Shown piece by piece: positions 42,518 through 44,581 of a DNA stretch of 64,000 nucleotides. The stretch comes from Bacillota bacterium (lineage in GTDB: Bacteria > Bacillota > Clostridia > Christensenellales > SZUA-584): NCBI GenBank assembly GCA_023391105.1, contig JAEWBO010000023.1, forward strand, positions 19,640 to 83,639, given 5' to 3'. Both the position numbers and the translations under genes were made by a program. Positions within the stretch are counted from its first letter, which is position 1. Each line of letters begins with the position of its first letter. A model generated the notes under the pieces. The model was not told the origin of the DNA, ran no database searches, and was given only the letters and a program-made list of their open reading frames with translations.

Positions 42518-42811
42518 TCAGCTGCAGCAGGATTGCCCATCTCCGCCGCACGTTGGTTCTCTACCTGTAAAAAAGCTTCTGAGAATGGCTGCTGCACAGC
42601 CGACTCCGGCATGAACCTCCACAGCTGCAAATGAGCAGTTCTGCATACACGCCCCGCACTCCATGCACCTGTCTTTATAAGCAATCCGGGCTTTGCCTTT
42701 CTCCATTTCAAATACCCCATGCGGGCACACATCTGTACACATCCCGCATCCCGTGCATTTGTTTTCATCGAGCGTCAGTGTTGTCACGTTTTTTAAATAA
42801 TGGTGTCTCAT
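42518..42811 (-). CDS. hgcB: mercury-methylation ferredoxin HgcB
   Basis: 97 aa with two CxxCxxCxxxC clusters (CTGCGMCTDVCP and CMECGACMQNC). The conserved GVGCAA segment and a C-terminal vicinal CC are present. It lies directly downstream of hgcA. Confidence 0.85.
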   Translation of the reverse strand: MRHHYLKNVTTLTLDENKCTGCGMCTDVCPHGVFEMEKGKARIAYKDRCMECGACMQNCSFAAVEVHAGVGCAAAILRSFFTGREPTCGGDGQSCCS

Positions 42812-42825
42812 TGTTTTCCCTCCCG

Positions 42826-44037
42826 TCAGGCTGCCAGCGTTAAAATATCGTTGGCGATTAATGCGAGTATCCCCAGCCCGCCTGCAATGACCATAGCGGG
42901 TAAACCTGCTCTCATTTCCTTATTAACGCCGGACGGGCTTGTGTATGTGCTGCTGCCCGTAAAATTCATGGCGATGAAGGCCGAAATAGATGGCACGATC
43001 AACACATACGCCGCCGCCTTGAGCCAGCCGTAACTGGGCATTCCCGGCAGACCGTTCAGGAAACCCACACCGATTGCCCACAGCAGGCCGAGCAGGAACC
43101 CTTTGAACGCAAAGGCCCTTCCCGGTATCCACGGCAACAGCAAAGGCACAATAACACAGGCGATCAATATCGCACCCAGGTACGTATATAGGTCAATAAG
43201 ATTGAAGTGCCCGAAGCCAATGACATTAAGTATAAAGAACACACCAAATACGATGATCGTGGGTTTGACAGCCGCCACCAGTTCAATGGGGGCCAGCACC
43301 AGCCTGTCTTTTGCAGTGAAGTTGACCTGTCTCATCTTTTCCGTCGCCTGCATTCCGTTCGCAAGAAACGCCTTAATGTCCTGCGCGCGCACAGGCCCGT
43401 AGATGACTCTGAAGCCCGATCCTTTTTTCACGATATGCGCACTCACTCCCGTGGCGCCAAGCTGCGGCACGATGAGCGTGCGATGTGTGACGATGCTGTT
43501 AAGCTTTGTTTCGGCAATCCTATGGATCAGCTCTTGCGTTCCGAAAGTCCCTTTACCCGCTGCGCACCAAACATTGACGCCTTTGGTATCGAGTACAAGC
43601 ACCCAAGCGTTCAGACCGTCCAGCTGCTCACGCTCGCGGTCAAACGTGATCTTTTTGTTGGCTGTGACGAGTACCGGGGAATCCGCATTCGGTGTGCCCA
43701 CGCAATACAGCCTGGGAGCAACTGTGTAGTCCATGCGCGATGACGACCATCGAGCCTTCCAAGAGCCCAGCTTGTCTGCCCATTCCAGCTTTGTGGATAC
43801 CTGTGGAATCTTTCCCGCCGGTGTGTTGACATAGCCGCTTATCCAATGCTCAGCATGGCAGCCGCAGGAAGACGTTTCCCCGCCGCAGTTGCATTCGGAT
43901 TTCTCGGCAGCGGCCTCTGAGCCGCATGTACAAGGCCGCGCTTCCTGACATTTCGGTTCTAAATCTATCTTAATGCTATCTTGCATGTCATTTGTGTTTT
44001 CCGTCTTTCCTGCGCAGCTTTCTTCTTGATTTGCCAT
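42826..44037 (-). CDS. hgcA: mercury-methylation corrinoid protein HgcA
   Basis: The diagnostic cap-helix motif GVNVWCAAGKGTFGT is present (Cys158, codon 43564-43566). A C-terminal domain of about 5 TM helices follows. Confidence 0.9.
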   Translation of the reverse strand: MANQEESCAGKTENTNDMQDSIKIDLEPKCQEARPCTCGSEAAAEKSECNCGGETSSCGCHAEHWISGYVNTPAGKIPQVSTKLEWADKLGSWKARWSSSRMDYTVAPRLYCVGTPNADSPVLVTANKKITFDREREQLDGLNAWVLVLDTKGVNVWCAAGKGTFGTQELIHRIAETKLNSIVTHRTLIVPQLGATGVSAHIVKKGSGFRVIYGPVRAQDIKAFLANGMQATEKMRQVNFTAKDRLVLAPIELVAAVKPTIIVFGVFFILNVIGFGHFNLIDLYTYLGAILIACVIVPLLLPWIPGRAFAFKGFLLGLLWAIGVGFLNGLPGMPSYGWLKAAAYVLIVPSISAFIAMNFTGSSTYTSPSGVNKEMRAGLPAMVIAGGLGILALIANDILTLAA

Positions 44038-44060
44038 TTAAGATTCCTCCGATCATAGCA

Positions 44061-44531
44061 TCACTGACACTTATTGCTCGCAGCGCCGTTGCAGCTGCCT
44101 TCGATGTCGATAGCGCCGCATAACAGCTCGAGACTTTCAACCACCATCTCACGTTTTTCCGGAGGTATATCTGACAGGATTTTTTCGAAGTACACCGCCA
44201 TTTCTTCTTCGACTACCGCGTAAAGCTTTTTCCCCTCGCTGGTGAGGCAAATTCGTATGTATCTGCGGTCGTTCTCATCTGCTTCCCGCCGCGCCAGCTT
44301 TCCCTTCACCAGCTTATCAACTGTACGGCTCATTGTGCTCGTATCCAAATCGAGCATTGCCGCCAGTTCTATAAGCGAAAGGCTTTCCGCCCGGCCGATT
44401 TCCACCAGTGCGTGGCACTGGGCTAAGCTCGCCAATCCACAGCAGGAAAAGCGGTTCTGATCCAATATGCCTAATTTTCTTTCCAGATGCCGTATGGACT
44501 CTTGCAGTCTGGCTGAATTACTTGTATTCAT
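44061..44531 (-). CDS. MarR-family regulator with extra Cys motifs, first gene of the hgcAB operon
   Basis: The winged HTH is LIELAAMLDLDTSTMSRTVDKLVKGKLARREADENDRRY. Cys motifs are SCCGLASLAQCH and the C-terminal C..C...C. The start is trimmed to 44531 behind a GGAGGAG RBS, 23 nt upstream of hgcA. Confidence 0.8.
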   Translation of the reverse strand: MNTSNSARLQESIRHLERKLGILDQNRFSCCGLASLAQCHALVEIGRAESLSLIELAAMLDLDTSTMSRTVDKLVKGKLARREADENDRRYIRICLTSEGKKLYAVVEEEMAVYFEKILSDIPPEKREMVVESLELLCGAIDIEGSCNGAASNKCQ

Positions 44532-44548
44532 TCGTATACTCCTCCAGC

Positions 44549-44581
44549 TGCATTGTACCATGCATCAATTGTATTATGCAA
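44549..44581 (-). promoter_or_regulatory. promoter and palindromic operator of the marR-hgcAB operon
   Basis: On the minus strand, TTGCAT-18 nt-TACAAT with TGg extension. The palindrome TGCATggtacaATGCA (44549-44564) overlaps the -10 element. Confidence 0.55.

Follow-up and report, generated by a model that had tools for sequence, protein, structure and literature searches.

Introduction

How the expression of hgcAB is controlled, and for which function HgcAB evolved, are long-standing questions in mercury biogeochemistry, and methylmercury production is poorly predicted by gene or transcript abundance. The pairs with which ours is compared here are those of Pseudodesulfovibrio mercurii ND132 and Geobacter sulfurreducens, reportedly described by Parks and colleagues in 2013. 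The sole hgcAB regulator characterised so far is an ArsR-like protein of one Desulfovibrionaceae strain. This protein type, ArsR2, is encoded upstream of hgcAB and co-transcribed with it in P. mercurii ND132 and P. hydrargyri BerOc1, and ArsR2 responded also to S-adenosylhomocysteine (Gionfriddo et al., bioRxiv 10.1101/2022.10.17.512643). An unnamed putative regulator was found upstream of hgcAB in 112 genomes (McDaniel et al., 2020; PMC7438021), a MazE/AbrB-like type has been reported at hgcA by Zhang et al. (PMC10349881), and that paper mentions in a single sentence a MarR-family gene upstream of hgcA in Dethiobacter alkaliphilus and Geobacter daltonii. On the arsenic side, the MarR_ars subfamily was defined by Yu et al. 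(bioRxiv 10.1101/2021.08.12.456183); the founder, from Achromobacter sp. As-55, is AdMarR_ars, a repressor of arsV and of itself that binds both promoters, is released by As(III) or Sb(III) and needs Cys36, Cys37 and Cys157. In full-text literature searches we found no paper connecting MarR_ars to hgcAB. Here we analyze an hgcAB pair and the Cys-rich MarR gene that precedes it in a stretch of 64,000 nucleotides (nt), hereafter the window, of an uncultured Bacillota bacterium of the Clostridia (assembly GCA_023391105.1, contig JAEWBO010000023.1, positions 19,640 to 83,639).

Judging from sequence and by analogy with characterised relatives, we propose that the three genes form an autoregulated marR-hgcAB operon under a MarR_ars-like repressor that would respond to a thiophilic ligand, a reading in which we have moderate confidence. 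The locus resembles that of ArsR2 in that a small winged-helix repressor gene is found immediately upstream of hgcA, in what appears to be the same operon, with an arsenic link and a proposed autoregulation. It is unlike it in the family of the regulator (MarR, PF01047, with no HTH_5), in the operator, in the arrangement of the cysteines and in the taxonomic range, Bacillota here versus Desulfovibrionaceae and others there. Like in the cases of PMC10349881 a MarR-family gene adjoins hgcA, there in a confirmed methylator; that report contains no analysis of subfamily, cysteines, operator or arsenic link.

A complete hgcAB pair

A previous reading of the stretch made from the letters alone (the sequence-only reading) had described a complete hgcAB pair, and the family models bear this out, with all the signature motifs present. 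The hgcA gene (42826-44037, minus strand, 403 amino acids, aa), coding for the corrinoid protein of mercury methylation, reached 456.7 bits on the NCBIfam equivalog model HgcA_corrinoid (NF040863, cut-off 275), the match spanning residues 77-398 and model positions 1-324 of 325, and the corrinoid-binding domain matched by Pfam CdhD corresponds to residues 104-224. The cap-helix block GVNVWCAAGKGTFGT is found with its Cys at residue 158 (NVWCAAGK), where it had been placed before, and is kept across 13 aligned MarR-linked HgcAs, among which NVWCAAGKGTFGT is invariant with V or I at the second position. The C-terminal multi-transmembrane domain of the earlier description corresponds to five hydrophobic segments (transmembrane helices) at about residues 250-400, according to hydropathy and to the alignment with 12 MarR-linked HgcAs. 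The hgcB gene (42518-42811, minus strand, 97 aa) codes for a ferredoxin with two [4Fe-4S] motifs that scored 124.1 bits on NF040864 (cut-off 99). Its CX2CX2CX3C motifs are C19/22/25/29 and C49/52/55/59, and it has also C72 and, as previously noted, a terminal Cys pair, C95-C96.

These features are shared with the proteins of ND132 and G. sulfurreducens, in HgcA the N(V/I)WCA(A/G)GK cap helix with the Cys ligand and the five-helix transmembrane domain, in HgcB the two CX2CX2CX3C motifs and the C-terminal CC. Since HgcA and HgcB are, by these models and motifs, bona fide orthologues of the proteins required for Hg(II) methylation, the organism is a predicted methylmercury producer. The HgcA lineage of the window differs from those of ND132 and G. 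sulfurreducens, its function being a predicted one, and unlike them the window HgcA has a Cys-rich N-terminal extension of ~64 residues that is shared, variably, by MarR-linked HgcAs. This extension (residues 1-64) contains eight Cys, including CTCG, CNCGG and CGCH, falls outside the NCBIfam HgcA model and may act as a metal-binding arm; a CxCG-like motif is seen again, variably, in other HgcAs linked to MarR. More than 7,999 HgcA relatives were found at E <= 1e-20, the nearest all from Clostridia-type metagenome-assembled genomes (MAGs) of uncultured organisms, and as such the pair of the window simply adds one more ordinary member to a very large family.

One apparent operon

The three genes are located on the minus strand and are read in the order marR-hgcA-hgcB. 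The gap between marR and hgcA is of 23 nt up to the hgcA ATG, as had been stated, and the one between hgcA and hgcB of 14 nt, with a strong Shine-Dalgarno sequence in each (GGAGGAA at 44044-44050, minus strand, for hgcA; the hgcA-hgcB gap contains GGAGGGAA). A promoter and terminator scan of the region detected no terminator-like site in either gap. It did find an intrinsic terminator-like hairpin at 42399-42433 (minus strand, stem of 9 bp and loop of 7 nt, then TTTTTT), 85 nt past the hgcB stop codon, and the only other terminator match on this strand was a weak one, with a 5-bp stem, within the hgcA coding sequence. An Rfam search of positions 40000-48000 gave no match at E <= 0.1, including cobalamin or S-adenosylmethionine (SAM) riboswitches. 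The marR-hgcA-hgcB genes would be one apparent operon, and their predicted co-transcription is strongly supported because the gaps are short, each with its own Shine-Dalgarno, and the sole terminator comes after hgcB; because 21 other genome loci and 15 metagenome contigs keep the gene order between flanks that are unrelated; because a family operator (see below) sits upstream of marR; and because in the loci with the order hgcA-hgcB-marR this operator is upstream of hgcA instead. A compositional anomaly that might betray a foreign cassette was rejected, GC content being 42-54% over the region with nothing distinctive.

The gene model of marR had to be modified. The sequence-only reading had identified the gene and its position correctly but its open reading frame (44061-44561) begins 10 codons too early. 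With this frame Pfam MarR (PF01047) gave 46.2 bits (cut-off 24.6) and MarR_2 was also matched. We rejected the 166-aa version in favour of a 156-aa protein (44061-44531, minus strand, ATG at 44529-44531), because 120 of 120 homologues, among the matches listed, align from the 11th codon of the longer frame, the aligned close relatives are 155-163 aa long and begin at this 11th-codon ATG, and a Shine-Dalgarno GGAGGAG (44539-44545, minus strand), of which GGAGG is kept in the family consensus, is located 7 nt ahead of it.

A conserved candidate operator over the promoter

A scan with the alignment of the regulator's clade, one genome per species, provided 80 loci. The promoters were aligned by eye and then searched by pattern, and 59 of 88 family loci proved to share, irrespective of their cargo genes, an inverted repeat of 13 bp (TTGYA-N3-TRCAA) some 50 nt ahead of the marR ATG; in 14 of the 88 upstream regions a second exact copy was present 16 bp downstream, over the extended -10. 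The extended consensus of the operator is AATAGTTGCAtnnTaCAACTaTTttaTgnTACAATnaTTgCAGGAGG, with a conserved ATGnTACAAT. Over the 80 genome loci the motif was counted 65 times in 14.4 kb of marR-upstream DNA versus 10 times in the other 716.5 kb (~320-fold enrichment). Three of these 10 other copies were found just upstream of hgcA in hgcA-hgcB-marR loci, and the fourth locus of this kind has a copy with one mismatch. As the motif stands in front of hgcA in such loci, we take it to mark the promoter of the operon and not marR as such.

Within the 64 kb of the window the exact motif is found only once, as site 1 (TTGCATAATACAA, 44569-44581, minus strand), the first six bases of which are the likely -35 TTGCAT (44576-44581, minus strand). 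Site 2 (ATGCATGGTACAA, 44553-44565, minus strand) starts 16 bp after site 1, and its region contains the extended -10 TGGTACAAT (44552-44560, minus strand). The palindrome that had been proposed over the -10 of marR is indeed there (TGCATGGTACAATGCA, 44549-44564, minus strand, with 7/8 positions paired) and covers the TACAAT hexamer. As an operator this 16-bp sequence was rejected, not being conserved in the orthologous loci L001, L003 and L008; what is conserved is TTGYA-N3-TRCAA, and site 2, its copy with one mismatch, overlaps the palindrome. A consensus scan gave also an alternative promoter, TTGATA-18-TACAAT (44597-44568), with its -10 inside site 1, and a bound repressor would occlude either promoter.

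The operator bears directly on another way of looking at the locus, in which marR would be merely adjacent, regulating itself or something else, and hgcAB would be constitutive from a promoter of its own. Expression of hgcAB is often described as constitutive at a low level, and there is a weak promoter-like match (9/12) at 43991-43962, within the 5' end of hgcA. Against this, promoter-like matches in the region are at chance level (4 found versus 3.9 expected), a promoter would not fit into the 23-nt gap, the three genes are found linked again and again, in dozens of contexts that are unrelated, and apparently move together, and the operator precedes hgcA where the order is hgcA-hgcB-marR. 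We consider mere adjacency very unlikely.

A Cys-rich regulator probably related to MarR_ars

A protein search with the window MarR over 5.8 billion proteins retrieved 511 relatives. The best genome match was to 'Bacillota bacterium OH_HBrB_366' (87% identity), and the near relatives of both HgcA and MarR come all from uncultured MAGs or metagenomes. HTH_5 (PF01022, ArsR/SmtB) gave no match in the regulator, which matched only MarR-type families. By its domains, then, this is a regulator that would work like the ArsR-type regulator of hgcAB but outside the ArsR/SmtB family, and the suggestion that MarR represents a different solution from ArsR holds, a MarR upstream of hgcA having been mentioned already in PMC10349881.

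The cysteines of the protein (156-aa numbering) are C30, C31, C39, C95, C138, C147 and C155, and include all the unusual ones that had attracted attention before, SCCGL, QCH and the tail C-x8-C-x7-C. In an alignment of 24 relatives C30, C31, Q38-C39-H40 and the recognition-helix segment STMSRTV are invariant, and most of the proteins end in CC. Among the non-redundant clade members from the genome loci, C30 was found in 83 of 84, C31 in 80 of 84 and C39 in 83 of 84, with a C-terminal Cys in most. An AlphaFold2 model (predicted local distance difference test, pLDDT, 82) has a standard MarR fold of six helices and a beta wing. In this model the CC is placed in the alpha1-alpha2 loop, C39 at the start of helix 2 and the Cys-bearing tail (141-156) is disordered, and the CC loop and the C-terminal tail would both belong to the dimerisation region. 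We found no solved structure of a close relative, the best PDB matches being generic MarRs at 38 bits.

A tblastn search of annotated plasmids with the window MarR found relatives at 50-31% identity in records of Clostridium felsineum (marR-GNAT-arsR-acr3-arsC-arsD-arsA), Deinococcus (marR-arsN2 and a flavin adenine dinucleotide (FAD) oxidoreductase, within an ars island), Pseudomonas nitroreducens (marR-arsN1-FAD oxidoreductase-arsD-arsA) and Paenibacillus lautus (marR-arsN1). The P. nitroreducens MarR, 28% identical to the window MarR (61.6 bits, BLASTP), serves as a bridge to the founder of the subfamily. Its Cys36, Cys37, Cys45 and Cys157/158 have the numbering of AdMarR_ars and align with C30, C31, C39 and S146/C147 of the window; C147 falls opposite C158 rather than C157 of the bridging protein, a one-residue offset that may not matter, the tail being predicted to be disordered. 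With a hidden Markov model of the clade the ars-island MarRs scored 80-213 bits (the bridging protein 80); the control MarRs gave 26 bits (the second MarR of the window) and 16 bits (another Clostridium MarR).

A relationship of the window MarR to the As(III)/Sb(III)-sensing MarR_ars is suggested by the Cys positions and by the bridging protein. Both have the MarR fold, with two vicinal Cys ahead of the DNA-binding domain and, less surely equivalent, a C-terminal Cys (36/37/157 versus 30/31/147, via the bridging protein), both are encoded upstream of the genes that they control or would control, and links to arsN and further genes of organoarsenical metabolism exist across the wider clade. Unlike MarR_ars, the window clade has an additional, near-invariant Cys39 (QCH), the window MarR is only ~28% identical to the bridging Pseudomonas protein, and the cargo is hgcAB here, and arsM or a 207-aa methyltransferase gene in relatives, none of them reported for MarR_ars. 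The TTGYA-N3-TRCAA operator is not described in the paper of Yu et al. either. The metal- or redox-responsive control that the sequence-only reading had suggested gains support from the clade members found at arsM and arsN and from the match of the Cys positions to MarR_ars.

Alternating cargo under one regulator

We classified the neighbours of the clade MarR in the 80 genome loci. The hgcAB pair was located directly downstream in 21 and directly upstream, on the same strand, in 4. The next gene coded for an ArsM-type methyltransferase of about 270 aa in 18 loci, for the 207-aa methyltransferase, with or without a C_GCAxxG_C_C protein, in 23, for the C_GCAxxG_C_C protein only in 5 and for an ArsN-like protein in 3, the remaining 6 having other or unknown neighbours. 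All five of the ArsM-type proteins checked on NF008823 scored 294-323 bits (cut-off 263), and arsM is often followed by arsN1a (229 bits versus a cut-off of 170). The clade is thus linked to arsM, arsN and ars operons; at the window locus the cargo is hgcAB.

Distant clade members (52-58% identity) in Clostridium manihotivorum, Desulfosporosinus meridiei and Ruminiclostridium josui are encoded directly upstream of the ~207-aa SAM methyltransferase, in some of these loci with the C_GCAxxG_C_C protein gene between both, and in C. manihotivorum the pair formed by marR and the methyltransferase gene comes immediately after arsR-arsD-arsA-acr3. We rejected this 207-aa protein as a bona fide ArsM, the scores on NF008823 being 57-61 bits against the cut-off of 263; its best match was the DVU_1556 family, below cut-off, and we have treated it as a Cys-rich SAM methyltransferase. 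It is the commonest cargo of the clade (L004 5464-6087, L005 5643-6314, L007 690-1772 and ~25 further loci), has a conserved C-terminal Cys cluster, D-C-x-GGNCC-x4-C-G-C, and is often preceded by the C_GCAxxG_C_C protein or by a peptide of ~50 aa ending in CC. It may represent an uncharacterised metal(loid) methylation system. The C-terminal Cys pair of the MarR tracks the cargo, being found in 18/18 arsM-linked and nearly all hgcAB-linked members, and in only ~40% of those linked to the 207-aa methyltransferase.

The closest relatives that keep marR-hgcA-hgcB have identities of 66-88% for MarR and 74-86% for HgcA. In the two closest with long contigs (MarR identities of 88% and 66%) the three genes are followed by that of a 125-aa membrane protein, over flanks that are wholly unlike each other and the window, and the closest HgcA relative (86%) has the same arrangement, 125-aa protein included. 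The marR, hgcA and hgcB genes appear, from these comparisons, to move as a unit. The 125-aa protein is hydrophobic and has no family match (L001 8030-8407, L003 7995-8372, L008 7028-7402, L174 11549-11926). The window lacks its gene; between the terminator and a rhodanese gene there are ~290 nt of non-coding DNA, rich in AT. In the MAG UBA1316 (L010 5650-6449) the MarR-adjacent hgcA is split in two reading frames, by a frameshift or an assembly error.

In a neighbour-joining tree the hgcAB-linked MarRs fall in at least 4 clusters, interleaved with those linked to arsM and to the methyltransferase, and because of this interleaving the tree suggests repeated exchange of the cargo under the clade MarR. 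It also bears on the identity of the effector. Cys triads bind Hg(II) very tightly (the chemistry of MerR-type sites) and the cargo genes act on Hg, so that one could imagine Hg(II), or a further soft metal like Cd(II), as the effector of a clade that was re-tuned on acquiring hgcAB, which would make the operon mercury-inducible; the altered Cys pattern of the window sub-clade (SC together with C138 and C155, instead of CC) would fit. Against this, hgcAB-linked MarRs are interleaved with the arsM-linked ones in the tree and use the same operator, and most hgcAB-linked members keep exactly the CC...C...CC pattern of those linked to arsM. To our knowledge, moreover, hgcAB has not been found induced by Hg in model methylators, which we count against this explanation. 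Re-tuning to mercury seems to us unlikely, and a metalloid is preferred as the effector.

Proposed mechanism of repression

The mechanism that we favour would be as follows. The operon would be transcribed from one promoter (-35 TTGCAT, extended -10 TGGTACAAT) up to the hairpin terminator past hgcB, giving HgcA as corrinoid methyl carrier and HgcB as 2x[4Fe-4S] ferredoxin. With no ligand, the dimeric winged-helix MarR would sit on TTGYA-N3-TRCAA over the -35/-10 and keep its own gene and hgcAB off. A thiophilic ligand would be captured by the vicinal Cys30/Cys31 with Cys39 and/or Cys147 of the flexible tail, and its binding would move the DNA-binding lobes, so that the operator is released. 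The ligand would most likely be Sb(III), As(III) or the latter in a methylated form (methylarsenite), because in sister proteins this Cys pattern, together with this operator, serves the control of arsM and arsN and because a relative with equivalent cysteines responds to these metalloids.

Many Cys-containing MarR proteins are redox switches. A thiol-redox sensor that works through disulfides of the CC, C39 and the tail Cys, in the manner of OhrR, MosR or SarZ, would tie hgcAB to oxidative or disulfide stress. The window MarR has a weak NCBIfam similarity to OhrR, of 19 bits against a cut-off of 200, and in the relatives L001 and L174 a thioredoxin gene is found near the cassette. The other cargos of the clade consist of arsM, arsN and ars operons rather than of genes for peroxidases or thiol repair, and the response of the relative with equivalently placed cysteines is a Cys-dependent one to As(III)/Sb(III), for which reasons we hold redox sensing to be quite unlikely.

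Several points weigh against an autoregulated operon that responds to arsenic or antimony. Site 2 has one mismatch and site 1 only 4/5 complementary arm positions. The window MarR and its nearest relatives have S146-C147 where the family has a C-terminal CC, and C138 and C155 are extra and specific to them, so that another sensing site is conceivable; a response to Hg(II) or to redox conditions is possible, particularly in this sub-clade. The link to MarR_ars goes through a bridging protein of 28% identity, and the ligand is proposed by analogy only. Because the ranking of the 80 genome loci followed similarity to a query that is itself hgcAB-linked, the figure of 25/80 overstates the linkage to hgcAB, and the neighbour-joining tree carries no support values. 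Read-through from the operon located upstream (the marR2-MFS pair, see below) or an internal promoter in hgcA are possible as well. With these points taken into account, repression by a MarR_ars-like protein is the reading that we retain.

Regulators upstream of hgcA in metagenomes

Metagenome contigs of the Joint Genome Institute were scanned with an alignment of MarR-linked HgcAs. We examined the 80 best hgcA loci (44-57% identity), 62 of which had at least 650 nt upstream and were used for the counts of upstream genes. This MarR family was found directly upstream of hgcA in 15 of the 62 and an ArsR-type HTH_5 protein in 16, so that both hold in metagenomic hgcA loci the same position as ArsR2. 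A MazE/AbrB-like protein was found there in 4/62, and a low-molecular-weight phosphatase (ArsC-like) and an HMA-domain protein in 1/62 each.

Seven of the 15 metagenomic MarRs scored 128-163 bits; these have the CCG motif, to which most of them add QCH and a CC at the C-terminus. The other 8 (L108, L124, L138, L151, L157, L158, L167 and L173) make up a divergent group with RCC-x6-C, most with a C-terminal C-x-C(C), in which the same operator half-sites are present right at the start codon. In 5 of the 8 an exact TTGTA-N3-TACAA abuts the start codon and is translated in frame as 'LYxTT-M'. This divergent group might be the unnamed regulator of McDaniel et al. 2020. The ArsR-type proteins upstream of hgcA have a CAC or CVC motif, about half of them with a C-terminal CC. 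Those in Clostridia-like contigs (L094, L098, L099, L103, L105, L106 and others) have the classical As(III) motif G-E-x-C-A-C, and the C-terminal CC, present in about half, echoes those of HgcB and of the MarR clade.

Neighbouring genes

Directly upstream of the cassette, the minus strand carries the genes of a DHA2-type MFS efflux pump (44683-46116) and, before it, of another MarR of the ordinary kind (46156-46647). No terminator was detected between 44562 and 44682, that is, between the MFS pump gene and the marR-hgcAB promoter. This marR2-MFS pair is not kept in the closest relatives.

On the other side, ~290 nt past the hgcB terminator, begins a co-oriented cluster (33411-42115, minus strand) that codes for a rhodanese, a flippase-like membrane protein, a DedA/VTT protein, an MTAP-like phosphorylase and a CysK fused to a C_GCAxxG_C_C domain. 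It contains also a radical-SAM/DUF3641 protein that matched ArsS (TIGR04167, 'arsenosugar biosynthesis radical SAM protein') at 403.5 bits (cut-off 300), and members of the TIGR04283 and TIGR04282 families of 'arsenosugar biosynthesis glycosyltransferases', both slightly under their cut-offs. This ArsS-type cluster is 3.2 kb downstream of hgcB, and its adjacency to hgcAB is not kept in the closest relatives.

Clade MarRs of ~40% identity on plasmids of Bacillus cereus ATCC 10987 (pBc10987, L088) and Priestia filamentosa (pBEH3, L090) are encoded upstream of a ~300-aa permease gene; the opposite orientation is that of a neighbouring cluster coding for ArsR, an ATP-grasp protein and a member of the CMD family. 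This is another uncharacterised and probably arsenic-related module.

Implications

What is new here is the assignment of the hgcAB-linked MarR to a probably arsenic-sensing clade, its operator, and the alternation of hgcAB, arsM and a Cys-rich methyltransferase gene as cargo under one regulator. In Bacillota a second, unrelated repressor family holds the position upstream of hgcA about as often as ArsR. This clade is otherwise dedicated to genes of arsenic methylation and organoarsenical resistance and resembles a proven As(III)/Sb(III) sensor. As far as sequence comparison can tell, mercury methylation is tied to arsenic through this MarR for a second time at the level of regulation, independently of ArsR, and the convergence strengthens the proposed connection between both processes and provides testable residues, a DNA site and candidate ligands. 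It also leads to the prediction that exposure to As or Sb could modulate the methylmercury output of fermentative Clostridia in wetlands, rice paddies and digesters.

A broader idea, which we put forward tentatively and regard as doubtful, is that Clostridial HgcAB is one of three interchangeable cargo modules, together with ArsM and with the 207-aa methyltransferase (with or without the C_GCAxxG_C_C protein), under the same arsenic-sensing repressor of the MarR_ars type and the same operator. If this were true, the native role for which HgcAB was selected would be a part in responding to arsenic or to a similar soft metalloid. It might, for instance, methylate As(III), or a metalloid bound to thiols, in a corrinoid-dependent way, where anaerobic life would call for an alternative to the SAM-dependent ArsM, and mercury methylation would be a side reaction; the unrelated ArsR and MarR_ars families would have converged on an arsenic-linked control of hgcAB.

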